Shown here in pieces: positions 18,895-32,141 of a DNA stretch of 64,000 nucleotides. The position numbers and the translations under genes are program-made. Source of the DNA: an uncultured Gemmatimonadales bacterium (GTDB lineage: Bacteria; Gemmatimonadota; Gemmatimonadetes; Gemmatimonadales; GWC2-71-9); the NCBI GenBank assembly GCA_963771275.1, contig CAVYSW010000009.1, positions 256,001-320,000 on the forward strand, in the 5' to 3' direction. Position 1 is the stretch's first letter. Each line of letters starts with the position of its first letter. Below the pieces are notes generated by a model, which was given only the letters and a program-made list of their open reading frames with translations, was not told where the DNA came from and did no database searches.

Positions 18895-21021
18895 ATGACC
18901 ACCCGAATGGAGTTGACCCGACGCGAGTTCCTCCAGGCCGCTGCCGCCGCCGGCAGCGGACTGGTGATCGGCTTCACGCTGCCGAGTTGCGCGCGCCCGC
19001 CGGAGGGCCCGCCGCTCGAGCCCAACGCCTGGCTCAAGATCGGCGCCGACGAGAGCATTCTGGTGATCGTGGACCGCTCCGAGATGGGCCAGGGCGTGGC
19101 CACGTCGCTCCCGATGCTCTTGGCTGAAGAGCTCGAAGCCGACTGGTCGAAGATCGGGTTCGAGTTCGCGCCCGCGGACCCCAAGTACAACAACCTGCTG
19201 TTCGGAATGCAGGGGACCGGTGGGAGCAGCAGCATCCGCGCGGCGTATACCCCGCTGCGCAAGGCGGGCGCGGCCGCGCGGGAGGTCCTCATCGCGGCGG
19301 CTGCCCACACGTGGGGCGCCGACCGCTCGGCCTGCCGGGCGGAGCAGGGCGTGGTGATCCATACGGACGGGCGGCGGCTCACATACGGGCGGCTCGTCGC
19401 CACCGCCAGGACGCTCCCCGTGCCGACCGACCCGCCGCTCAAGGAGGCGAAGGACTGGAAGATCCTCGGCACCCGCGTGCCCCGGCTCGACACACCCTTC
19501 AAGGTGGACGGCAGCGCCCAGTTCGGCATCGACGTGACGCTGCCGGGCATGCTGGTCGCGGTGGTCGCCCGGTGCCCCGTGTTCGGCGGCACGGTGGCGA
19601 GCTTCGACCCGGCGGCGGCGCAGGCCGTGCCGGGCGTGCGCCATGTGGTGCAGATCTCGAGCGGCGTCGCGGTCGTGGCGGACGGGTACTGGCCGGCCAA
19701 GACCGGCCGCGACGCGCTCCAGGTCTCCTGGACCGAAGGCCCGAACGCCGCGGTCTCGAGCACGACCATCGCCCGGCTCTTCGCCGAGCGGGCCGGGCGT
19801 CCCGGGGTGCGGGCCCGGCACGACGGCAACCCCGACGCCGCGCTGCCGGGCGCCGCGCGGCGGCTGGAGGCCGTGTACGAAACCCCCTTCCTGGCGCACG
19901 CCACGATGGAGCCGATGAACGCCACCGCGCACGTGCGGTCGGACGGCGTGGACATCTGGGCGCCCACGCAATTCCAGACCGGCGCGCACCAGATGGGCTC
20001 AGCCATCGGCGGGGTGCCGCCAGAGCAGGTGAAGGTCCATACCACCTACTTGGGCGGCGGGTTCGGCCGTCGCTTCGAGCTGGACTTCATTCAGGAGGCG
20101 CTCGAGACGTCCAAGGCGGTGGGGGCGCCGGTCAAGGTCATCTGGTCGCGCGAGGACGACGTCCGGCACGAGTGGTATCGGCCGGCGTCGTATCATCACG
20201 TGCGGGCGGGACTGGACGGCCGCGGGCAACCGGTCGCGTGGACGCACCGGGTCGTGGCGCCCTCGATCATGATCCGCGTCTTCCCCAACACGGTGCAGAA
20301 CGGCCTGGACGGCGAGGCCGTCGAGGGCGCCGTCGAGATGCCGTACAGCGTCTCCAACGTGCACGTGGACTACGTGATGACCGACACGGGGATCCCGGTG
20401 GGATTCTGGCGGTCGGTGAACCACTCGTACAACGCGTTCGCGGTGGAGAGCTTCATCGACGAGCTGGCCCACGCCGCCGGGCAGGACCCGTACGAGTATC
20501 GGCGGGCGCTGCTGGGTAGTGCGCCGCGCTATCTCCGCGTGCTCGAGCTGGCGGCGACCAAGGCGGGCTGGGGCACGCCGGCACCGGCCGGCCGTTCCCG
20601 GGGCATCGCCGTCCACAAGGCGTTCGAGTCGTACGTGGCGCAGGTGGCCGAGGTGTCCGTGGGGTCCGACGGCACGGTGCGGGTGCATCGCGTGGTGTGC
20701 GCCATCGACTGCGGGCCGGTGGTGAACCCCGACACGGTCGAGGCGCAGATGCAGAGTGGGATCGTGTACGGACTCACCGCGGCGCTCTTCGGCGAGATCG
20801 GCATCGAGGGCGGTCGCGTGATGCAGAGCAACTTTCATGACTACCCGATGCTGCGCCTGGCGGAGATGCCGACTGTGGAGGTGCACATCGTGCCGAGCAC
20901 CGACGCGCAGGGAGGGGTGGGCGAGCCGGGAACGCCGCCCATCGCGCCGGCGGTGTGCAACGCGATCTTCGCGGCGACGGGCAAGCGGATCCGCAAGCTG
21001 CCGATCGGCAAGGTGGTCTGA
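18895..21021 (+). CDS. Xanthine dehydrogenase family molybdopterin-binding subunit (IorB-like), Tat signal
   Basis: [39 protein letters not shown]. Confidence 0.95.
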
Positions 21022-21066
21022 GCGTGGGTGCCAGGCCAAAACACACCACTACCGGGAGGATGATCC

Positions 21067-21597
21067 ATGAAACGTCTGATTGCGCCGGCCTTTGCGGCCT
21101 GCATGCTCGCGGCGCCGGCACTCGCCCAGGAAGCCCCGAAGCCCGGGCCGGAGCACGCGCGGATGGGCTACTTCGCCGGTACCTGGGAATTCGCCGGCGA
21201 GGCCAAGGCATCGCCGATGGGCCCGGGAGGCAAGATCAGCGGCGGTGAGACCTGCCAGTGGTTCGCCGGCGGGTTCCAGCTGGTGTGCCAGGGCGATATG
21301 ACCGGTCCGCGCGGGTCCGGGAAGAGCGGGAGCGTCTGGGCCTACGACCCGATGCAACAGGCTTACACGTTCTACGGGTACAACAGCTTCGGCGAGGCGT
21401 TCTCCATCACGGGCACCGTGGCCGGGAAGGTGTGGACCTGGAATGCCGAGTTCCCGTTCCAGGGCGCCTCGATGAAGATCCGGGCGACCATGACCGAGGA
21501 ATCTCCCACGGCCTATTCGTACATGATGGAGACCTCGACCGACGGAACGACCTGGGCGTTGGGAGAGGAAGGTCGCGCGACCAAGAAGACCCGATGA
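21067..21597 (+). CDS. Secreted DUF1579-like beta-barrel protein
   Basis: GGAGG RBS; signal peptide; [17 protein letters not shown]. Confidence 0.75.
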
Positions 21598-21601
21598 CGC
21601 G

Positions 21602-21641
21602 GATGGACGCAGCCCGGATCATCGTCCGGGCTGCGTCCATC
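21602..21641. repeat. Perfect 17-bp inverted repeat (REP-like hairpin)
   Basis: GATGGACGCAGCCCGGA-TCATCG-TCCGGGCTGCGTCCATC. Confidence 0.85.
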
Positions 21642-21651
21642 AACCGCGAGC

Positions 21652-21897
21652 TTGATGGCCCAGGCGGACACGCTTCGGTGGCAGGGCGAGCAGGACAAGA
21701 TCGGGCCTGAGCACGTGGCACCCATGGTCGAGGTGGCACGGGCAGTCCTGCTCGCCGAGCGCCGGCGGCGCGCCACCGTCGGTGAGAGCGACCCGTGGGT
21801 CTTCCCTGCCCCAGAGGACAGTCAGCAGCCGGACCCCGAGGCGATGCGGCTGGCGCCGGACAACCGGGGCGTTCTCAGGGATAGCCGTGCGCCCTAG
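21652..21897 (+). pseudogene. Tyrosine recombinase/integrase C-terminal remnant, catalytic HxxR segment missing
   Basis: LRWQGEQDKIGPEHVAP..WVFPAP then QQPDPEAMRLA; resembles the catalytic-Lys loop and post-Tyr tail of phage integrases. Confidence 0.6.
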
Positions 21898-21935
21898 AAC
21901 CTCGCCCACGTCCCGGGGCGCACCAACGGCAGGCC

Positions 21936-23426
21936 CTAACGAGCCGTCCGCGGAATGCGCAGGCGCACGCCTTCCTCTGGCGGGGCCATGGCGTTCGCGG
22001 CGGCAAGATCGGCCAAGGCAGCCGCGTATTCCTCCCACCGGACTGACCCGGTGAAACGCTGGGCCTCGTCCAGCATCAGAACAAACGGCATCGGGCGGTC
22101 TTGCCGCGACAAGGCGCGCAGCCCGCCGAGGTAATCATCCCGGTACACGGTTGGGACAACGATGCGCCGTTCTCCCGCCGCCACGAGTTCCGCGTTCATG
22201 AAGGCGCGCGCAATTCGCCCGTTGCCATCCGTAAAGGGATGCACCTCCGTCAACACGAACATGACCATCGCCGCCCGTTGAAACGCGGTGCGAAGGGCGC
22301 GTGCAGCTTCCCACCCCTTCATGAGCGTTCCCGGGACGAGTTCCGGCTCGACGAACCGCGTGCCGCCGGCTTGGTTGGGCTTGGTCTTCCACTGCCCCGG
22401 CCCCACTTCGGGACGTCCGGCCATCAGCGTTGCATGGGACGTCGCCACGCGCTCCAGGAAGTCCACTGCGCTTCGGTCACCGGCGACCGCACGGCCCAGC
22501 CAGGTAGCGTCGCCAACCAGGCGATAGGTGCCCAGGACATCGTGCGCGTCGGCTGGTCGGCGTGCTGGAATGAGGCCATCGAAAACGATCGCGCGCGCCT
22601 CCTCGACCTCAAACTCAGTACCCTCGATGTAGTTCGAGAAGTACGCGTCGAAGAACGACACATTCGCAAACGCCGGTCCGGCCGTAACCCGATCTTCCCG
22701 CAACGGAGGCGACACCGTCGGGAGGGTCCGCGCCAACAGGTCAAACCGCTCGACGCGTTCCGGATCGAACGGCGCTCCCGCGGCGCGAGCCCGTGCGGCT
22801 GGGGTCCGCAGGGCAGCGGCCGGCCGGGACCGGAGAAGCGCCCCGATCAGCCCGTCGAGCTGCGCCATTTCCCGGTCGGCGCCGAGCGCGGCAGTCAGGG
22901 CCCGAGCCTGGTCCCGGATGGCGTTCACCGCCGTCTCCCCGCGACTCCTAAGCATGGTCTCAAGGCGCGTTTCGATCTCCTGTCGAGACACCGTACGGCG
23001 CACCCCAGCCCGCGCGCGGGCGATAGCGAGGTTCTCGAGCAGCAGACGAGCTTCCGAAGCAAGCAGAAGCCCGTTGAGGAACGGCTGATCGCCCGCAAGG
23101 GCTGTTGGACCCTTGTACACTCGGAGCCGAAGGCCTGGAAGGTCGAGGCGCCTGCTCGTGGAGCTCGTCATGAACACGGTGCCGTCTGGACTCGGTCTGG
23201 CTTCAAAGGCCGTGCGATGGGAGACGACGGCACCCGGGGCGTAGTGGGCCGCAATCTCCCACAGATGCCGGCCGACGACCAGAGCAGGGTCGTCAGCGAG
23301 ATTCGGCGTGTACAAGGCAGGTCCGATCTTCCGAAGTTCACCGCGCGCTACTGCGCGGCTTACTCGTGAAGAGCCGGTTCCGCCACCGAAGACGAACTCG
23401 GGCCAGGGGACGCGCGGTTTTGCCAT
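21936..23426 (-). CDS. Fic family protein with long N-terminal extension
   Basis: Canonical HPFTDGNGRIAR motif; FFDAYFSNYIEGT. Confidence 0.92.
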   Translation of the reverse strand: MAKPRVPWPEFVFGGGTGSSRVSRAVARGELRKIGPALYTPNLADDPALVVGRHLWEIAAHYAPGAVVSHRTAFEARPSPDGTVFMTSSTSRRLDLPGLRLRVYKGPTALAGDQPFLNGLLLASEARLLLENLAIARARAGVRRTVSRQEIETRLETMLRSRGETAVNAIRDQARALTAALGADREMAQLDGLIGALLRSRPAAALRTPAARARAAGAPFDPERVERFDLLARTLPTVSPPLREDRVTAGPAFANVSFFDAYFSNYIEGTEFEVEEARAIVFDGLIPARRPADAHDVLGTYRLVGDATWLGRAVAGDRSAVDFLERVATSHATLMAGRPEVGPGQWKTKPNQAGGTRFVEPELVPGTLMKGWEAARALRTAFQRAAMVMFVLTEVHPFTDGNGRIARAFMNAELVAAGERRIVVPTVYRDDYLGGLRALSRQDRPMPFVLMLDEAQRFTGSVRWEEYAAALADLAAANAMAPPEEGVRLRIPRTAR

Positions 23427-23459
23427 GAGAAGACCACCAGGAGTGCGATTGAGCAAGTA

Positions 23460-23487
23460 ATTATAACGAGATATGTCGGTAATGCAA
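23460..23487 (-). promoter_or_regulatory. Near-consensus sigma70 promoter of the fic gene
   Basis: TTGCAT-N16-TATAAT on the minus strand. Confidence 0.65.
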
Positions 23488-23557
23488 GAAATCGGCACGA
23501 GAAATGCTCGAAGCTGGGACCATCAACGTCTGGAATCTGACACCCATGTCTGTAATT

Positions 23558-23642
23558 CGTTGACAGACCGCGTGATCTGCCGGGGTTCCAGGCGTGAGGC
23601 GACGGGGGTCTTTCGGGGTCAATCGACACCGGAATCGACACC
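23558..23642 (+). repeat. ~85-bp direct repeat, copy 1
   Basis: CGTTGAC..GATCTGCCGGGGTTCCAGGCGTGAGG..TTTCGGGGTCAATCGACACCGGAATCGACACC. Confidence 0.92.
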
Positions 23643-23816
23643 AGATGACGGCTGCGATCCGTCCAGGACTTGGACCTTTCCCGTCCCTCTGGCAATGAGT
23701 CCCGAACACGCGTACCCTTGAGCAAGAAGCACCGCTGCCTCTTCTGGCGAATGCGGACTCGACGGACGCATGGACATGACACGTCGACCCGACCTGACGC
23801 CAGCTCCATCCTCGCG

Positions 23817-24131
23817 ATGGCTTTGACCACCGTCGGGGAGTACGCTGGAGACGCCGCAAACGACGCGATTCAGCACATCAGATCGGCGGTCATCCCCCTG
23901 TACCGCGAGTCCAAGGGGAACCCCGAGTCTGAAGGGGACCCGTCGTTCGTGGGGTCGGGCGTCCTGTTAAGGGCGGGGAACCACCATCTCCTTCTGACGG
24001 CAGCGCACGTCCTGGATGACGCAGCCGACTCGCCTTTCGTGGCCCTCGGGGGTCGATCGCTCAGCTTGGGCAGCGAGTTGATCGAGCAGTACGGGCTGCG
24101 CGTCGCCGCTCCCGCTAAGACGCGCGCATAG
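23817..24131 (+). pseudogene. Trypsin-like serine protease, N-terminal fragment
   Basis: VGSGVLL..LLLTAAHVLD present; no catalytic GxSG before the stop. Confidence 0.6.
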
Positions 24132-24139
24132 AAGCTCGC

Positions 24140-25366
24140 ATGGTGCAAGACCACAGGCCTCCACGTCGACTGCACGCGATCCCACCAGTCCTTTGCCTTA
24201 TTCTGGCATCGTGCAAAGGCGGGGTCGAGAATGGGCGAAGCCGGGCGGAAGCAGGATCACGGCCGAGCGTGGGAGCTATGACCGAGTGCCTGCCGCTTCC
24301 GCATGAGGTCGCATCGGACGCTGACGTGACGATCGGAGACACGAATCCCGATTCTGCCCAGTACGCGTTTTCGGGCGTCACTAGCGTCGCGACCACTGCT
24401 AATGGCATGGAACTCGTGCTCGACGCACCGGAGCGCAGGGTACGCATCTTTGATCAGGCTGGACGGTTTGTCCGCGACATTGGCCGGGAGGGCCGCGGTC
24501 CCGGCGAGTTCATCGATCCAGTCGGAATGGGCGTTCTTGGCGATTCTCTTGTTGTGCTATTCGATCGTCAGCTTGAGCGCGTTACTGTGTTTCACCTTGG
24601 TGGATCCCTTGTCTTCACGAAACGAGTGGGCGTCGGACTGATGGTTCAGGGCTTGGTCCTAAGGATCGCCGCGCTCGACCTTCAAACGCTCGTATTTGAG
24701 ACCTTTCGGGGGTACCGTCAACCGGCTCGCATCGGCGTGGATGGTACAGGCGCACTGCTTCGAGTGCACGTTGACATCACGCAACTCGACTCACTTGTCA
24801 CGTTTGAGGGCCGCGACGCCATCCCGCTGCACACCGAGGCGCAGCCTTACCCACTCGTACTACAGGCACCGTTCTCTCGGGCACCACACTGGGCGCTGGG
24901 TCCGAGTGTGCTCGCCTTCGGCAGGAGCGACGAGCCGTGGATTCGGATCATGAGTCTGGATGGGCAAGTGCTTGACAGCGTCGAGCTCTCAGACTTCCCC
25001 GACCAAGTGACGTCAGTTGACATTGCGGAGTACAAAGCGTCACAGCGGGCGCTTGTAGACGATCGGACGGCGGCACCGCTTCGACGCGCTGTCGAGAACG
25101 CATTGAGCAGTCTTGCATACCCGAGTACATGGCCGTGGTTCCGGTCGGTGCTCTTTGACCGGTGCGGAAGCCTGTGGGTTGAACGCGTCCGGCCGCGTGA
25201 ACCGACTCGTGTTTGGGACGTCTTCGACTCTCGCCTTCGGTACCTCGGTGAGGTCAGGACACCCTCTGGGCTAACCGTCCACGTCGTGGATTCTACTGGC
25301 CTATGGGGTACGCGTACCGACAGTCTGGGAGCGGTACAGGTTCAGCGCTACCGTTTCGTCCGATAG
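24140..25366 (+). CDS. 6-bladed beta-propeller lipoprotein
   Basis: Lipobox LASC; RIFDQAGRFVRDIGREGRGPGEF; WDVFD..YLGEV. Confidence 0.8.
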   Translation: MVQDHRPPRRLHAIPPVLCLILASCKGGVENGRSRAEAGSRPSVGAMTECLPLPHEVASDADVTIGDTNPDSAQYAFSGVTSVATTANGMELVLDAPERRVRIFDQAGRFVRDIGREGRGPGEFIDPVGMGVLGDSLVVLFDRQLERVTVFHLGGSLVFTKRVGVGLMVQGLVLRIAALDLQTLVFETFRGYRQPARIGVDGTGALLRVHVDITQLDSLVTFEGRDAIPLHTEAQPYPLVLQAPFSRAPHWALGPSVLAFGRSDEPWIRIMSLDGQVLDSVELSDFPDQVTSVDIAEYKASQRALVDDRTAAPLRRAVENALSSLAYPSTWPWFRSVLFDRCGSLWVERVRPREPTRVWDVFDSRLRYLGEVRTPSGLTVHVVDSTGLWGTRTDSLGAVQVQRYRFVR

Positions 25367-25384
25367 TCAAGACCTTCGCGCTGG

Positions 25385-25467
25385 CGTTGACGGACCCGCG
25401 ATCTGCCGGGGTTCCAGGCGTGAGGTGCCGGCCTGTTTCGGGGTCAATCGACACCGGAATCGACACC
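25385..25467 (+). repeat. ~85-bp direct repeat, copy 2
   Basis: Same blocks as copy 1; differs mainly in a ~10-bp central spacer. Confidence 0.92.
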
Positions 25468-25528
25468 GCGCGGTGGTCAGGCCGTGCACCGGTAGGCGGA
25501 GGACATGCAGACTAGTTAGAGACTGCGG

Positions 25529-26059
25529 ATGTCCATGTCCAACGAGCCACTTCACCTGCTTCTGACCGCACTCGGCACCCCGGCATCCTGCTTTGTGCTT
25601 GGCGCTGGCGCCTCTGCTCCCGACGTCCCGACGATCGCAGAACTGCCGTACCGTGTAGCTGCCTACGCCGGCCAGCTCGGCTCATTCCCGGCAGGGCCGA
25701 TCGCCGACTCCCCTCTGCGTCAGCTGATCGCCCCTCTGATACGACGGGCTCGGCTAACAACGTCGATTGAAGAGTGGAAGGCCGGAGCGATGACCGACTC
25801 TACGGTAGCGGCAATCCTCGAACATCTCATCGCCCTGGCGCACTGGCGCCCCTTGGTCCAGTACTCCGTCTTTCGTCTGTTCCCGATCAACGCCGCGCTT
25901 GTCAGCTTCAACTGGGACGGGCTCGCGTTCACTCGTTGTCCTCAGTCCATCGTACTGCACCCCCATGGCCGCGTACCACCGAGGGGGAAACGTCGGACGT
26001 CTGCTCTCGGAATCCCGACAAAAAGAGTCTTCGCATTCTGCAATACCTGCTACCAGTAG
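25529..26059 (+). pseudogene. SIR2-like (SIR2_2) protein, C-terminally truncated
   Basis: FVLGAGAS, LVSFNWDGL, VLHPHG motifs, then unrelated sequence after ~25980. Confidence 0.65.
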
Positions 26060-26151
26060 CAGTTGCGGATCAGCGCTCCGACGCCGAATCTTGGTGCGAC
26101 CGACTCACTCACGCAGAGCAACAGGGTGTTGAGCGATGGATCGAGGGTGAC

Positions 26152-29106
26152 GTGTCACGCATCCTACGCTGTCGTATCTCAGGGGTTGTCTGCTTCACGG
26201 TTGCCACGCTAGGCCTGGGGTCGTGCGAGTCCACGACCGCACCGGCCGACGGCGATAACCACATCGCGATCGGTACCGTCGTGACCGGGTCGCTCGCCGC
26301 GGGCGACTCCGGGCGTGCCTACCTGTTCCCGGCCACGGCCGGCTCGCGTTATGTGGTCTTCACCGCGGTGCTCGAGGGGACCCTGCAGCTGAGCGTTCGA
26401 GACTCCGCACAGCAGTTCGCCATCGCGTCGGCGGTGGCGAGCCCGACGGGCCGGCCGCTCGAAGAGACCGCCTCTCTGCAGTTCACGGCCTCCGTGAGCG
26501 GGACACACGTCCTCGCGGTGGGCGGCTACCCGGCCCACGCGGTGGTGCGGTTCCAGTTCCTCATCTATGGGGTGGTCGACGCTCCCGAGAACCGACCAGC
26601 CGCGTTCGCGATCGGCGACACGGTGAGCGGCGAGACCCTCGATCCCATCGCCGATGTCGACCTGTTCACCGCGCACGTGCCGGTGGGGCAGGACTTCGTC
26701 GTGGTCGCGGAGGCTCCCGCCGCAACAGGGGTCGGCCCGCTGGCCCTCGCGGTCTGGGACTCGACGGAAACGCTGGCGTTCACGTTCTTCCCGACGGGCA
26801 TGCCCGCCGCGATCACGACCGGCCGGGTGCATGCGCCCGTCGCTGGCACCTACTGGTTTCGGTTCGAGGCCGCCGGCGCGGGCGTCGGAGGATCACCGCG
26901 GTTTCACGGAGCGTATCGATTCTGGACCTACACGATCGACCCGGCACCGGAGCACCGCGTCGCGGCGGTTACGCCCTCGACCGTGATCAGCGGCGAGACG
27001 CTCGATCGTGCCGGAGACCTGGACGTGTTCACATTCTCGGCGGCGGCCGGCGACGAGCTGAACGCGTTCTACCAGTCGACGGTGCCGTCCCATCTCGAGA
27101 TCGCATCCGGCGCGGGGCCCGCGCTCGCCACTGTCTCGGCCGGCCCCGACACGGCCCTGTTCAGCCGGAACACCGGTCGGATGCGGCTGGCCCAGGCGGG
27201 CTCCTACGTCGCGCGCGTCAGCGCGGACGGGCCGACGCTCAGCGACACGGGCGCGTATCGCTTCTTCCTCTACCCGATCGACCGGCGGCCTGAGAACGTG
27301 CCGGCAGCCATCGTCCCCGGTGACTCGATCGCCGGCGAAGCCATCGACCTGCCGGGAGACGTGGACGAGTTCACGTTCACCGCGTCCGCCGGGGACGAAT
27401 TCAACGCCTTCCTCCAGGCGGAGCACGGCTCAGCCCCGACCACGCTAGAAGCCGTTGACGCCGACTCGACGGTGCTCGCCACTGTCCTGAGCACCGCGGC
27501 GGACACGAGCCTTCTGGGACAGGCTACACCGCGCTTCGCAGTCAGGACCAACGGGACGCACCGGCTACGCGTGGAGGGTACGGGAGCCGGCAGCGAGGGC
27601 GGCGGCCCGTACCGGCTGTTCCTGGCCCGAATCAACCGCAAGCCAGAATCGCGGCCCGATACGCTCGCGCCTGGCGACACGGTCGTGGCCGAGGCGATGG
27701 ATCTCCCCGGCGACGTGGACGAGTATGTGGTCCACGTACCTGATTCGAGTGGAGCGAACCTCGTGGTCCAGCTGGGGTACGTGGCGGCTGGCGGCTACCT
27801 CCTGGCGGAGCTCACCGACTCGGCTTCCGGCCAGGTTCTCGGGAGCGCGACCAGCTACGGCTGGCCCGGCCTGACCGGGACGCTGGCGCTCGCGCCGGGC
27901 ACCTACGTCATCCAGGTGGAGGAGCCGTACACCTATCGGCCGGTGCTCCGCGGCCCGTACCGCTTGTGGCTGTATCGCTTCGGCTTTGGACCCGAGGCGG
28001 TGCCCGACAGCATCGTGCCCGGCGACACCGTCTCGGGCGAGGCGCTCGACGTGCCGGGCGACGTCGACGCCTACCGCCTGTACGTCGGTCCGCGACAGCA
28101 CGTCAACGTGATGATCCAGGGCCTCTCGTCGGGAAACGGCGGCTTCCAGGTCTGGATCAGCACCTCGTGGGGTAGGCCACTCGCGCTGGTGGCAACGCCC
28201 CTGTCATCGGCCGCGCTGGCCGATCACCAGACGCTCCGGCTCGATCTCCTCGGGGCGGGATGGTACAACGTGGGAGTTTCCGGAGGCACCTCGCCAACCA
28301 CCCAACTGAGCGAGCGGGGCACGTATCGGCTGGCCGTTCTGCCGGTGGACACGCTGCCGGAGACGGCAAGTCCGTCGCTCGCCATCGGCGATTCGCTCAC
28401 CACGGAGGGCATGGACTTCATTGGGGACTGGGACCAGTACAGCGTGACGGCGCCGCCGGGCCAGGAGCTGAACGTCCTGTTCGGCACCGACGCGCCGTGC
28501 TGCGGTCCGCAGGTTCTGGTGTTCGACCCCGCGACCGGCGACACCCTGGCCGCTTCGGGCGGTCAAGGCGACCACATCGCGGGGGCAGCGCGTGTCCCGG
28601 CGAGCGGCCGGGTCGCGGTCGCGGTATTCGAGCCGCCCTCCGTCTACTTCAGGCAGTGCTACGACGCCACCTGCGGAGGCGTGTTCCACTATACGGGACC
28701 GTACCGCCTCCAGGCGCTCTTACTCAATCGCGCGCCCGAGACCGCGCCGGCGGCGTACACGCTCGGCGACACGGTGCGCACCGAAGCGATCCTCCCCGCC
28801 GGCGACATCGACGAGTTCACCCTGACTGCGACGCCGGGCGAGACGCTGACCCCATGGTATCGCCTCCGCGCGGCTCCTGTTCCCCCGGGCAGCATGATCA
28901 AGCTCGAGGTGATCGATCCGGCGACGGGAACCGTTCTGGTGGGCGCGAACGCCGCCGTGAACGTCTTCGCACCGGAGTTCTTCTCGCCGGGCTCGTTCAC
29001 GGTGCCTGCCTCGGGGCAGGTGTTGATCCGACTCCGAGGGACCGGCACCTTCGGCAATGAGGTGGGGACCGCTCCGTACGAGTTCTACATCACGCGGGAG
29101 CCCTGA
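26152..29106 (+). CDS. Large lipoprotein of ~8 tandem PPC-like beta-sandwich repeats
   Basis: GTG start after GAGGG; lipobox LGSC; repeated PE..P....GD.V.GE..D..GDVD.F.F..G.YR units of ~120 aa. Confidence 0.8.
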   Translation: MSRILRCRISGVVCFTVATLGLGSCESTTAPADGDNHIAIGTVVTGSLAAGDSGRAYLFPATAGSRYVVFTAVLEGTLQLSVRDSAQQFAIASAVASPTGRPLEETASLQFTASVSGTHVLAVGGYPAHAVVRFQFLIYGVVDAPENRPAAFAIGDTVSGETLDPIADVDLFTAHVPVGQDFVVVAEAPAATGVGPLALAVWDSTETLAFTFFPTGMPAAITTGRVHAPVAGTYWFRFEAAGAGVGGSPRFHGAYRFWTYTIDPAPEHRVAAVTPSTVISGETLDRAGDLDVFTFSAAAGDELNAFYQSTVPSHLEIASGAGPALATVSAGPDTALFSRNTGRMRLAQAGSYVARVSADGPTLSDTGAYRFFLYPIDRRPENVPAAIVPGDSIAGEAIDLPGDVDEFTFTASAGDEFNAFLQAEHGSAPTTLEAVDADSTVLATVLSTAADTSLLGQATPRFAVRTNGTHRLRVEGTGAGSEGGGPYRLFLARINRKPESRPDTLAPGDTVVAEAMDLPGDVDEYVVHVPDSSGANLVVQLGYVAAGGYLLAELTDSASGQVLGSATSYGWPGLTGTLALAPGTYVIQVEEPYTYRPVLRGPYRLWLYRFGFGPEAVPDSIVPGDTVSGEALDVPGDVDAYRLYVGPRQHVNVMIQGLSSGNGGFQVWISTSWGRPLALVATPLSSAALADHQTLRLDLLGAGWYNVGVSGGTSPTTQLSERGTYRLAVLPVDTLPETASPSLAIGDSLTTEGMDFIGDWDQYSVTAPPGQELNVLFGTDAPCCGPQVLVFDPATGDTLAASGGQGDHIAGAARVPASGRVAVAVFEPPSVYFRQCYDATCGGVFHYTGPYRLQALLLNRAPETAPAAYTLGDTVRTEAILPAGDIDEFTLTATPGETLTPWYRLRAAPVPPGSMIKLEVIDPATGTVLVGANAAVNVFAPEFFSPGSFTVPASGQVLIRLRGTGTFGNEVGTAPYEFYITREP

Positions 29107-29176
29107 ACCACGCGCCCACGAAGCAAGGCCCGCCGGGCGGGAACCCGCCGGGTGCTAAGTCGTTGCGTTACTTGGG

Positions 29177-29204
29177 ATGGGCCTGAGTGGAGTTGAACCA
29201 CTGA
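29177..29204 (-). repeat. 28-bp duplication of the tRNA-Ile 3' end (att-like)
   Basis: ATGGGCCTGAGTGGAGTTGAACCACTGA is identical to 29755-29782. Confidence 0.95.
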
Positions 29205-29309
29205 GCTCAAGCCGCAGACTGAGCAGAACCGCTGATCTGCGCTGATATGCTCCCACGCGCGTGCCCGGGATGGCACACGCGTCACTCCGGCACCTACCGT
29301 TGACGCGGG

Positions 29310-29678
29310 ATGAGCCCAACGCCCGCCGTCTATGCGCACGCCTCGCTGACCCACCAGATCATCGGTGGCTTCTACGAGGTGACAACGCTCTCGGGGCCGG
29401 CTTCCGTGAAGCGGTGTATGAGCGAGCACTGGCGATGGCGCTTGCGGATCGTCGCCTGAACGTGGAGCGTCAGGTCCCCGTTACCGTGCGGTTCAGGGGA
29501 AGGCGCGCTGGCCTCTTCCGGGCGGACGGTGCTGCTCGAGCTCAAGGCTCTCCCGGCACTCGAGCCGGCTCACGTCACGCAAGTGCTCAACGCGCTTCGC
29601 GCACCCGGACTGCACCTCGGTCTGCTGCTGAACTTCGGTCCGCAGCCACAGGTCAAACGCATTATCCAAAGCCGCTGA
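29310..29678 (+). pseudogene. GxxExxY protein (PD-(D/E)XK nuclease fold) with two frameshifts
   Basis: LTHQIIGGFYEV / NALGAGFREAVYERAL..RQVPV..FRAD / VLLELKA..HVTQVLN..GLLLNFG; breaks near 29382 and 29528. Confidence 0.85.
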
Positions 29679-29755
29679 TGGCGCATAAAGACACAGATGG
29701 ACGCAGATTCGGGCGAGTCTGCGTCCATCAGCGCGTTACAGCGTTATCTGCGGAA

Positions 29756-29830
<75 letters not shown>

Positions 29831-29921
29831 TGCTGCGCTCGCAATCTAGATTGCCCTCCCTCCCCATACCACCCCACATGAGGAGCAAGACCCTCATCCC
29901 CGTCCGCTCCGGGCGCCACCC

Positions 29922-30161
29922 CTATTCCCATTCGCCGCGCCGCTTGCCGGGCTTGGGCCCTTCCGCCTCGTCCCAGTCCTCCTCGATCTCGTCGTAATCC
30001 TCGTATTCGTCCTCGTCGACCTCTTCCTCGTCTTCGTCGTAGTCGTACTCGTCCTCGTCAAGCTCCTCGTCCTCCTCGAAGTCGTCGACATCGTCCTCGT
30101 TCTCGTCGTCATAGCGTGCGGCGACGACTCGCGACGAAACCGACGGATCCCAGGGCCACAT
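29922..30161 (-). CDS. Small, highly acidic hypothetical protein (79 aa)
   Basis: GGAGG RBS before ATG; 41 of 79 residues are D/E. Confidence 0.75.
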   Translation of the reverse strand: MWPWDPSVSSRVVAARYDDENEDDVDDFEEDEELDEDEYDYDEDEEEVDEDEYEDYDEIEEDWDEAEGPKPGKRRGEWE

Positions 30162-30215
30162 TGTTCCTCCCACTCCCGCGCTAAGGTTCACCACGACGAC
30201 GAACGTCCGACCGTC

Positions 30216-32141
30216 CTACGCTTCAGCGGCCGTCTTGGCGGCCCGCTGCGCCTTCTTCCGATCCGAGACGCCGAGCGTGCGCTTCCGCAGCCGGATCGCG
30301 GCCGGCGTCACCTCGATCAGCTCGTCCTCCTCGATGTACTCGAGCGCGAGCTCGAGCGTGATCTCGCGCGGCGGCTCCAGACGCAACGCCTCGTCCGAGG
30401 CCGTCGTGCGCATGTTCGAGAGCTTCTTCTCCTTCGTGATGTTCACGTCCATGTCGCCGACCCGCGCGTTTTCCCCGACGATCATCCCGCCGTACACCGG
30501 GTCACCCGGACGCACGAACATCTGCGCGCGCTCCTGCAGGTTGAAGATGGCGAAGGCCACCGCCACCCCCTCCCGGTCCGCCACCAGTACCCCGCGCTTC
30601 CGCCCCGCCAGGGGCCCGGCCCAGGAGTCGTAGCGCAGGAACCGGTGGTGCATGATCCCCTCGCCGCGCGTATCCGTCAAGAAGTCGGACCGATAGCCAA
30701 ACAGGCCCCGGCTCGGGATCGCAAACTGCATCCGCGTCTTCCGGTGGCCCATCGGCTTCATCGCCATGAGCTCGCCGTGCCGCGGACCGAGCTTCTCGAT
30801 CACGGTCCCGACCATGTCCTGGGGCACCTCCACCGACAGCTCCTCGTACGGCTCCAGCCGCTGGCCGTCCGCCGCGTCCTTCGTGATCACCCGCGGCCGA
30901 CTCACCTGGAACTCATACCCCTCGCGCCGCATCGTCTCCATCAGGATCGAGAGGTGGAGCTCCCCGCGCCCCGACACCGTGAGCGTGTCGGGCCGATCGG
31001 TATCCTCTACCCGGAGCGCCACGTTTCGCTCCAGCTCGTGGAACAGGCGGTCCCGCACCTGCCGCGACGTCACGAACCGCCCCGCCCGCCCCGCGAACGG
31101 GGAGTTGTTGACCGAGAAGTCCACCGAGATCGTCGGCTCCTCCACCGCGATCCCCGCCAGCCGCTCCGGCACGTCCGGGTCGACGATGGTCTTCCCGATC
31201 TCGATCCCCTCGAGCCCCGCCAGAGCCACGATCTCACCCGCGCCGGCCTCGGCGATCTCGACCCGGTGCAGGCCGTCGAAGCCGTACAGCCGCCCCGCCC
31301 GGGCCCGCTCCCCCTCGGCCGCATCCGCCATCCCCACAGGCCCCAGCGGGAGCAGCAGCACGTCCTGCCCCACCCGGATCCGGCCCCGCTCGATCCGCCC
31401 GATCGCGATCCGCCCCAGGTACGACGAGTAGTCCACCGTCGAGATCAGCATCTGGAGCGGCCCGGCGGGGTCCCCCGTGGGCTCCGGAATCGCGTCGAGA
31501 ATCGCCCGGAACAGCGGCTCCAGATCCCCCTCCATCCCTCCCCCGTCCGCCACTCCTGCCGCTCCTGCCGCTGCTGCCGCCCCGGCCGCTCCGGCCGCCC
31601 CGCGTCCCCACCCGTCCGGCAGCGCGCGCGACGACACGCCGTAGCGCGACGAGGCGTAGATGAACGGCGCGTTGAGCTGCGCGTTCGTCGCCTCCAGGTC
31701 CATGAACAGCTCGAGCACCTCGTCGTGCACCACGAGCGGACGCGCGTCAGGCCGATCGATCTTGTTGATCACGACGATGGGCTGCAGCCCCAGCTCCAGC
31801 GCCTTGCGCGTCACGAACCGCGTCTGCGGCATCGGCCCCTCGGCGGCATCCACCAGGAGCAGCACACCGTCCACCATCCGCAGGATGCGCTCGACCTCGC
31901 CCCCGAAATCGGCGTGCCCCGGCGTATCCACGATATTGATCTTCGTGTCTTTCCAGTGTACCGCCGTATTCTTGGCCAGTATCGTAATGCCGCGCTCGCG
32001 CTCGAGCGGGTTGGAATCCATCACGCGCTCCTCCACCTGCTCATTCGCCCGGAAGACGCCCGCCTGGCGGAGCATCTTGTCGACCAGCGTCGTCTTGCCG
32101 TGATCGACGTGCGCGATGATGGCGATGTTGCGCAACGACAC
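30216..32141 (-). CDS. typA: Translational GTPase TypA/BipA
   Basis: [46 protein letters not shown]. Confidence 0.98.
31545..31598. repeat. 9-bp-period repeat in-frame in typA
   Basis: TCCTGCCGC TCCTGCCGC TGCTGCCGC CCCGGCCGC TCCGGCCGC. Confidence 0.75.

Follow-up and report, generated by a model that had tools for sequence, protein, structure and literature searches.

In a stretch of 64,000 nucleotides (nt) from an uncultured Gemmatimonadales bacterium, hereafter the window, a short element occurs twice in direct orientation on one side of a tRNA-Ile gene. The window covers positions 256001-320000 of contig C9 in the organism's own genome, G000, an assembly of 11 contigs that is 96.7% complete. 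We consider it very likely that the repeat is the integrase-distal attachment (att) arm of tRNA-targeting genomic islands whose integrase resembles that of phage lambda (lambda Int), and that the window is what is left of repeated insertions at tRNA-Ile that have since decayed. The original prediction, made from the letters of the window before any comparison, had taken the two repeats for the boundaries of cassettes in an array built by a tyrosine recombinase. Coordinates below are window positions, and the comparison set consists of 201 genomes of the same bacterial family, G000 included.

A direct-repeat search resolves each copy of the element into two blocks: a 32-nt repeat (D7) that is 100% identical between 23611-23642 and 25436-25467, and a 35-nt repeat (D6) that is 91% identical between 23571-23605 and 25397-25431 and holds an exact 26-nt run, GATCTG...GTGAGG. 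From one copy to the next, starts are separated by 1825-1826 nt. With up to 3 mismatches allowed for, the pair of boxes AATCGACACC-NN-AATCGACACC is found twice in the window and not once in 100 dinucleotide shuffles. When an 85-nt copy is compared by BLAST with the whole of G000, only the two window copies are returned, the remaining five rows being chance matches of 14-19 nt with E values of about 1-3.5. Repeat search, BLAST and shuffles thus confirm the two direct repeats with exact blocks of 26 and 32 nt on which the original prediction was built.

The extent of about 85 bp first assigned to the repeats holds for the blocks and needs revision at the edges. We built a profile of 120 positions from an alignment of 28 copies picked for having both the boxes and the palindromic segment that we call block A. 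With this profile, nhmmer places copy 1 (the 'P arm') on the plus strand at 23526-23642, well 5' of the earlier limit and nearly full length (profile positions 7-120, E 1.3e-22); its block A, an imperfect palindrome, lies at 23560-23581 and its box pair, AATCGACACC-GG-AATCGACACC, at 23621-23642. Copy 2, also on the plus strand, spans 25385-25467 (positions 37-120, E 3.8e-14), is truncated at its 5' side so that it starts just before block A, and ends in a box pair that the box scan places at 25446-25467. The first block had also been read as the coding tail DLPGFQA-stop. That translation is literally correct, but the frame of copy 2 has a TGA four codons upstream, and the ALALTD said to precede the motif in copy 2 belongs to a different frame (the open reading frame (ORF) at 25303-25515 reads ...FALALTDPRSAGVPGV). 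The proposed likeness to an integrase tail, RLAPDNR, fails as well, that peptide being outside the integrase-homologous part of ORF 21652-21897. Across 28 relatives, the block shows single-base insertions and deletions and no reading frame.

Relatives of the 85-nt copy are present in 25 of the 201 family genomes, and arms were found in three of the four genomes of the window's genus that were searched. An exact-pattern scan restricted to one genome per species returned at least 122 stretches; among the 79 loci listed with titles, 22 are labelled Gemmatimonadota, -ales or -aceae, and most of the other listed matches are box-like strings in unrelated coding sequence or tandem repeats devoid of block A, which were not used. 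The conserved element is about 115 nt long and is made of a 5' unit (consensus AATCCCGACA...), block A (consensus GACAGACCGCGCGATCTGCC, an imperfect palindrome), a variable stretch, a third unit and the two boxes.

The position of the element is as constant as its composition. We retained as full length the profile matches with hmm_from at or below 13, hmm_to at or above 93 and E below 1e-5, merged identical sequences, and left out partial matches such as window copy 2 or loci L031 and L032. This gives 47 distinct copies, 39 of which are directly preceded by a partial tRNA; the other eight, window copy 1 among them, have no tRNA fragment. In 34 of the 39 cases the fragment comes from the 3' side of tRNA-Ile(GAT) and stops at tRNA position 28-36, in the anticodon stem-loop, and the rest are four 5' parts of tRNA-Ser(GGA) and one tRNA-Lys. 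Such a fragment directly before an arm is the hallmark of an island's far end after integration into a tRNA gene. The early suggestion that the repeat belongs to tRNA-Ile-directed tyrosine-recombinase elements is therefore borne out by 34 of the 47 full-length copies. Since Ile, Ser and Lys cores all occur beside the arm, one arm type serves at least three tRNA species.

The tRNA-Ser(GGA) arms (L028, L035 and L171, in G172 and G119) have a geometry of their own: what has been displaced is the 5' part of the tRNA (positions 1-39), and tRNA and integrase are read in one direction, with the integrase upstream. Two metagenome-assembled genomes attributed to other phyla, an Acidimicrobiaceae (L087, E 3.8e-27) and a Chthoniobacterales (L070, E 8.6e-23), also carry full-length arms and their tRNA-Ile fragments on short contigs; these reflect either mis-binning or transfer.

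The partner of the arm is a family of tyrosine integrases. A remnant of such an integrase lies beside boxes and a tRNA in L108 and L103, and its catalytic domain was used as search query. This 176-amino-acid (aa) query matches 75 of the 201 genomes, or 74 of the 200 besides G000, counting all matches with E at or below 1e-5, fragments included. Where they could be delimited, the integrases are 381-395 aa long and match Pfam Phage_integrase with E 1e-13 to 1e-16. Among the best 30 integrase loci, 25 face a tRNA gene, which is tRNA-Ile in 10 of these. Usually the integrase stop codon is immediately followed by two tandem boxes of 9-13 nt, then a hairpin, then the 3' end of the tRNA. A box pair of any kind follows 24 of the 30 integrases, compared with 92 of 600 random 125-nt segments, and a strong pair follows 15 of 30, compared with 20 of 600.

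Boxes and integrases vary together. The closest integrase clade carries boxes of the form AATCGACAC(A/C), which is the box of the window (7 of the 30 loci), and other lineages carry AATGGACAC, ATTTGGaCAC, AATCGACAG, ACGGACACC or ACTCACAAC, both units of the pair being altered alike. In the G126:C8 island, of about 17 kb, the ATTTGGCCAC variant is found in both arms: the proximal boxes after the integrase read ATTTGGCCACTCC ATTTGGACACTCC, and the distal arm, after the displaced part of tRNA-Ile, shows block A and then ATTTGGCCACTCT ATTGGCCACTCC. In the ACTCACAAC clade, box pairs in the same orientation flank the islands of G100:C247 (3.3 kb), G085:C210 (about 20 kb, with two distal arms) and G177:C180 (15.5 kb); the distal pairs lie about 100 nt past the partial tRNA and the proximal pairs after the integrase C-terminus, and a reversed control pattern gave no match in the scan of this clade. 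A second integrase of G126:C8, near 1405540, has no boxes or tRNA after it and so offers no test of both arms, and no tRNA repeat was found within 40 kb for the distal end of the G035 island.

Because the boxes follow integrase stop codons and co-vary with the integrase lineage in both arms, they behave as arm-type sites. This co-variation is our main argument for regarding them as putative arm-type sites that the island's own integrase would bind, and it speaks for the interpretation of the paired boxes offered in the original prediction. That prediction depended on an association of the repeat with integrases or tRNA-Ile; relatives show such an association, and the idea survives.

Structure models are compatible with this reading. 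The full-length integrase model, with a mean predicted local distance difference test (pLDDT) score of 75, finds its best match in full-length lambda Int (1z1b; Foldseek E 6.7e-9). A separate model of residues 1-75 (pLDDT 79.7) shows a sheet of four strands plus a helix, and this predicted domain, which has no Pfam match, aligns with the arm-type binding domain of the high-pathogenicity island (HPI) integrase (3jtz; VIA-align Z 5.7, root-mean-square deviation 2.9, 59 aligned residues, 24% identity), with the N-terminal domain of lambda Int on P'2 DNA (2wcc; Z 4.9) and with 1z1b (Z 4.8). The modelled fold is thus consistent with an arm-binding domain, and not decisive for one.

From these elements we propose the following scheme. 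A tyrosine integrase of the lambda Int type would insert islands into tRNA genes, in most cases tRNA-Ile(GAT), at the anticodon-loop region. Read in the direction of the integrase gene, an intact island would consist of the displaced tRNA fragment, the arm of about 115 nt, the cargo, a small helix-turn-helix (HTH) gene that may encode an excisionase-like protein, the integrase, two boxes of the same sequence as those of the arm, a terminator hairpin and the intact tRNA. Its arm would comprise three loosely repeated units, the palindromic block A among them, followed by the two boxes, which the N-terminal domain of the integrase would bind as arm-type sites. An excisionase-like protein, a regulator or a bending protein is the probable ligand of block A and the remaining arm repeats.

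Block A has a second location in these islands. Its reverse complement recurs, with 20 of 20 letters, at the 3' end of the conserved HTH ORF just upstream of intact integrases, where the forward block matches only 16 of 20. This ORF of 130-190 aa, which overlaps the integrase start (L158:470-862, L162:2622-3014 and relatives), belongs to no Pfam family. An imperfect palindrome of 16 nt, CAGATCGCGCGGTCTG, codes for its C-terminal tail, ...PGQIARAVVTS, and is the reverse complement of block A. Variation of the palindrome there is mostly at third codon positions. The palindrome common to the HTH ORF and the arm may be a shared protein-binding site. The orientation of block A in the arm is opposite to that of the copy before the integrase, so that the arm is not a simple deletion product; we had considered its origin by deletion of an integrase between block A and the boxes, and dropped that idea on these grounds.

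In the window itself, several insertions at one tRNA-Ile would have been followed by the loss of integrase modules and tRNA fragments, leaving an integrase remnant, two arms of a genus-specific variant, low-GC foreign cargo after each arm and an islet beside the tRNA. The two copies are 88.4% identical over 86 aligned columns (76/86), and copy 2 is 89.4% identical to the arm copy of G172, a genome of the same genus; these values exclude a recent duplication. The DNA downstream of copy 1 is unrelated to that downstream of copy 2. On this interpretation the two copies are scars, left either by separate integrase events or by a single old array that was rearranged.

The integrase remnant lies on the plus strand at 21661-21834, inside ORF 21652-21897 (tblastn E 1.5e-6 and 3e-6). 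It covers only the middle of the catalytic domain, with about 58 homologous aa, and comes from a family whose intact members carry the same boxes as the window; the 81-aa ORF that contains it has no match in Pfam, NCBIfam or PADLOC. With the 176-aa query, this segment (G000:C9:277661-277834, E 4.3e-7) is the sole match in G000. No further integrase match was obtained with that query in the four genomes of the window's genus, three of which are 77-89% complete. Since the genome yielded no cognate integrase in this search, the window arms are most likely immobile today.

Several points weigh against this interpretation. Neither window copy is flanked by a displaced tRNA fragment, unlike 39 of the 47 full-length copies: when the tRNA is aligned with the 160-180 nt that flank each copy on either side, the scores are 14-20, within a control distribution with a mean of 18 and a 95th percentile of 24. 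Copy 2 has lost the first third of the arm, G000 has only a remnant and no intact family integrase detectable with the 176-aa query, and the one displaced tRNA copy in the window, at 29174-29212, is followed by no arm (no nhmmer match). The remnant is found left of both arms, and a Fic gene separates it from them. More generally, co-variation of both arms is seen in four islands only, and the role of the boxes as arm sites is putative in all members of the family. As for the N-terminal domain, its top structural match is an AP2 domain (Z 6.2), Z values under 8 can reflect a common arrangement, and a sequence search of solved structures gave chance rows only. Finally, the profile and the locus set were chosen by the feature itself, namely boxes plus block A, and unpublished genomes (G068: L012; G187: L015) supply two rows of the 28-copy profile and two of the 39 tRNA-flanked positives.

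Some of these points bound the interpretation. Having no core (tRNA) repeat, the window copies are filed as decayed arms and not as functional sites. A simple one-island layout puts the integrase between the arms and the tRNA, and the window consequently calls for no fewer than two events, together with deletions. Since profile and loci were picked by feature, our counts describe the arm family and not all islands. The unpublished genomes also give single rows in the survey of downstream genes and in the orientation tally (L012 in G068; L015 and L029 in G187), and no claim rests solely on them.

Arrays comparable to that of the window exist elsewhere. Arms in the same orientation, 1-4.2 kb apart and with variable genes between them, are shared by the window and at least seven other genomes, so that the notion of a recombinase-built array, as originally put forward, recurs beyond the window. 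Three loci (L160, L171 and L107) contain tandem junctions in which an integrase and its boxes are followed by the tRNA fragment and arm of another island; box types differ between the two islands of L107, and the integrase there no longer has its tyrosine. Contigs from four public sequencing runs were used as presence evidence only, given that contigs drop rare forms, and the parts uncovered in runs X2-X4 were left uninterpreted. Contigs of run X1 reproduce the window, with the 32-nt repeat as the only place where they break. Run X2, from another study, has a contig with the Fic gene and arm 1 that departs from the window sequence exactly after the boxes, at 23640; two contigs that diverge after 25468; and another that joins the 3' part of tRNA-Ile (to 29799, tRNA position 31) via 27 letters to the arm from 23544 onwards. 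These public contigs agree with the arm as a breakpoint.

The most serious alternative is an integron-like platform, in which integrase-less units, each made of an arm, one or two genes and a tRNA-fragment core, are captured and released singly by an integrase acting in trans. The geometry would be of the excision type, one partner having the integrase-side boxes and the other the distal arm, and the units would never own an integrase. Arrays with no integrase between arms by tblastn occur in the window and at L030/L068, L066, L073, L109, L035, L028 and G085:C210; in most arrays each arm has its own tRNA fragment; and arms lie on the tRNA side of the integrase or its remnant in the window, L160, L171 and L107. 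The divergence of X2 sequence exactly at the box end in two places and a 3-kb unit of G066 made of a tRNA fragment, an arm, a LuxR gene, an amidohydrolase gene and tRNA-Ile, with no integrase, could be read in the same way. The content of the units argues otherwise: they include gene fragments and truncated arms, as decay predicts, and of 33 first genes downstream of an arm, 21 share its strand, 10 are on the opposite strand and two are uncalled. The extra small unit of G085 sits at the far end from the integrase, a place that such a platform does not predict, and the tandem junction of L107, with its two box lineages and pseudogenised integrase, is ordinary accretion. A near-identical unit at two different sites was not seen.

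The same evidence bears on the window copies as boundaries of individually mobile cassettes, a claim of the original prediction that we do not retain in view of the missing core tRNA repeat, the mixed gene orientation and the failure to find a family integrase with the 176-aa query in G000 or the three other genus genomes searched. The excised circle of about 1.83 kb that was expected on this basis left no back-joint in the contigs of the four public runs, nor did any contig show a form minus exactly one unit, although this says little when rare forms are dropped from contigs. We therefore judge it unlikely that the integrase-less units, present in at least eight genomes, are a working tRNA-anchored cassette system of Gemmatimonadales instead of debris; if they were, they would constitute a sequence-conserved, tRNA-anchored analogue of the integron. 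Identity with integrons proper was ruled out, as there is no hairpin of the attC type and the integrases are not IntI-like.

Clearly less probable is a cis-regulatory module, that is, a promoter or operator with tandem regulator sites placed before accessory genes and having no role in recombination. Block A contains TTGACA, the 10-nt tandem boxes with their 12-nt period resemble regulator binding sites, a same-strand gene starts 20-270 nt downstream of many copies, and the reverse complement of block A lies just upstream of integrase start codons. No sigma-70-like promoter was called in 23300-25700, however, and the downstream genes are functionally unrelated, 10 of the 31 that were called lying on the opposite strand; regulation leaves the fixed position after tRNA fragments and integrase stop codons unexplained. 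A terminator scan of 23300-25700 gave one terminator-like site, inside a gene, when 1.6 were expected. A promoter of the sigma-54 or extracytoplasmic function (ECF) type was dropped, the spacing, judged by eye, being unfit.

A conserved non-coding sequence of about 115 nt found in many genomes, sometimes several times per genome, could in principle be a structured non-coding RNA or a miniature transposable element (a MITE or REP-type repeat), but we regard this as highly improbable: an Rfam 15 scan of 21000-31000 at E up to 1 returned the tRNA and two chance rows only, RNAalifold on 22 copies found four invariant pairs and no compensatory change, single-strand folding z-scores, computed with RNA parameters, range from -0.19 to +0.34 over both strands, and G000 has just two copies, with no inverted partner in 20000-30000 and no terminal inverted repeats. 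The end of a Tn7- or Mu-like transposon was likewise discarded, all copies being direct and none inverted.

What the window contains is then an attachment-site arm of a known kind, that of tRNA-targeting islands with a lambda-Int-type integrase, decayed into an array. The attP site of phage lambda has arm-type sites P1, P2 and P'1-3, which are bound by a heterobivalent integrase. The arm family resembles it in having a tyrosine integrase with an extra N-terminal domain, modelled as a beta-sheet and a helix; short direct repeats in both arms, one set of which lies between the integrase end and the core; and a small HTH gene just upstream of the integrase. It differs in that the core is the anticodon-loop region of a tRNA and not a phage-specific site, and in that each arm has two boxes with a 12-13-nt period, the distal ones being separated from the core by about 100 nt, which include three other repeats. 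Moreover, unlike that of lambda Int, the N-terminal domain, which putatively binds the boxes, has no sequence match to known arm-binding domains.

Tandem accretion at a shared site, with derivatives that have no integrase, is known from ICESt1 of Streptococcus thermophilus, an integrative and conjugative element, and the related cis-mobilizable elements (CIMEs). The arm family shows the same kind of remnants, in the same orientation at one site and some of them integrase-less (the window, G066, L030 and L066), and the 3-kb unit of G066:C3 (L034) described above, which ends in an intact tRNA-Ile, has a CIME-like layout. Unlike CIMEs, the units are very small (1-4 kb), and those of the window have no flanking core repeats. 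Tandem arrays of Salmonella genomic island 1 (SGI1; PMC2297512) provide a further comparison for accretion. Genomic islands in tRNA genes are catalogued by Islander (PMC4383910). Islands of this type split the tRNA gene on integration, restore it and leave the displaced fragment at the far end, exactly as G126:C8 and our other complete examples do. In contrast to them, the arm on the fragment side is conserved enough across genera to be found alone, and the fragments of the window are gone.

With integrons, the arm family shares a one-sided array of short variable units and a site-like repeat near the remnant of a tyrosine recombinase. The arm, unlike attC, is conserved in sequence, and has neither an attC-type hairpin nor a conserved fold; related integrases reach 31 bits on NCBIfam NF040815 ('site-specific tyrosine recombinase/integron integrase'), for a cut-off of 220; and the gene orientation after the arm is not uniform. 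Our literature search, which reached its sources in part, found no paper on such elements in Gemmatimonadota, and this is not proof of absence.

The surroundings of the arms fit a foreign and variable segment of the genome. The GC fraction is 0.59-0.65 over 23000-26500 and 0.67-0.75 to the left; the right flank of the tRNA-Ile gene (BipA and beyond) is syntenic with other genera, whereas the left flank is not. To the left of copy 1, where an integrase had been predicted at about 21850-23500, the large ORF is a gene for a Fic/DOC protein of 520 aa at 21936-23498 on the minus strand (Pfam PF02661, E 1.6e-13), and the only trace of an integrase is the remnant of about 58 aa at 21661-21834. The Fic/DOC protein resembles the candidate defence families PDC-S04 and SoFic (PADLOC, E 1.9e-13 and 2.4e-11), and its adjacency to the arm is also present in a contig of run X2. 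Further left, at 21602-21641, two perfectly matching inverted arms of 17 nt enclose a loop of 6 nt, right after a DUF1579 gene and just short of the integrase remnant; this inverted repeat is likely a terminator and may mark the old boundary of core DNA. In runs X2 and X3, the 158 nt of 21776-21933, from the end of the remnant ORF to the region of the Fic stop codon, are swapped for nine other letters, which is a strain-level insertion-deletion.

Each copy of the arm had been said to be followed by an effector fragment and a lipoprotein gene. A short ORF and then a lipobox gene do follow each copy, and the description of the former as an effector fragment lacks support. After copy 1 comes the N-terminal fragment, 104 aa, of a trypsin-like protein (23817-24131, plus strand; Pfam Trypsin_2, E 0.005, below the cut-off), then a beta-propeller protein of 408 aa with lipobox LASC (24140-25366, plus strand; Pfam DUF5128, E 2.4e-8); for the whole segment, 23817-25366, tblastx shows a weak homologue after an arm in G172:C121. 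After copy 2 comes an ORF of 176 aa (25529-26059, plus strand) with no match in Pfam, NCBIfam or PADLOC. The next gene encodes a large protein with PPC-domain repeats (frame 25774-29106, plus strand; Pfam PPC, E 9.5e-9; repeat family D1) and a probable lipobox, LGSC, near 26250. Over 26200-29106 (plus strand), this cargo of copy 2 is composed of about 6-8 tandem units of around 115 aa, each with a domain of the PPC (pre-peptidase C-terminal) type, behind a probable lipoprotein signal, and the period of the corresponding DNA is 342-378 nt.

The integration target, tRNA-Ile(GAT), is at 29756-29829 on the minus strand (ARAGORN; Rfam tRNA, 76 bits), 4-6 kb to the right of the arms and with its 3' end facing them. 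A displaced 39-nt copy of its 3' part at 29174-29212 (repeat D5, no strand assigned) is 92% identical to 29752-29790. The 0.58-kb islet that it delimits, 29174-29755, includes a 40-nt inverted repeat (29672-29753) and a truncated PD-(D/E)XK_3 ORF (29261-29764); the displaced copy ends near tRNA position 36-37, compared with 30-31 in the arm family, and the islet is probably the scar of a different element.

The mechanism we describe is a textbook one, and what is new is a member in a little-studied phylum. For repeats that punctuate a region near tRNA genes, att arms are the most economical reading, and in the window they explain the variable, low-GC hot spot beside tRNA-Ile. The 120-position profile, together with the lineage-specific box motifs, provides a sequence handle on a family of mobile elements, and the natural co-variation of integrase lineage and presumed arm sites could serve to study or re-target arm recognition by heterobivalent integrases. 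Elements of this family shape the accessory genome of a poorly studied phylum whose members are mostly uncultured bacteria of soil and sediment.

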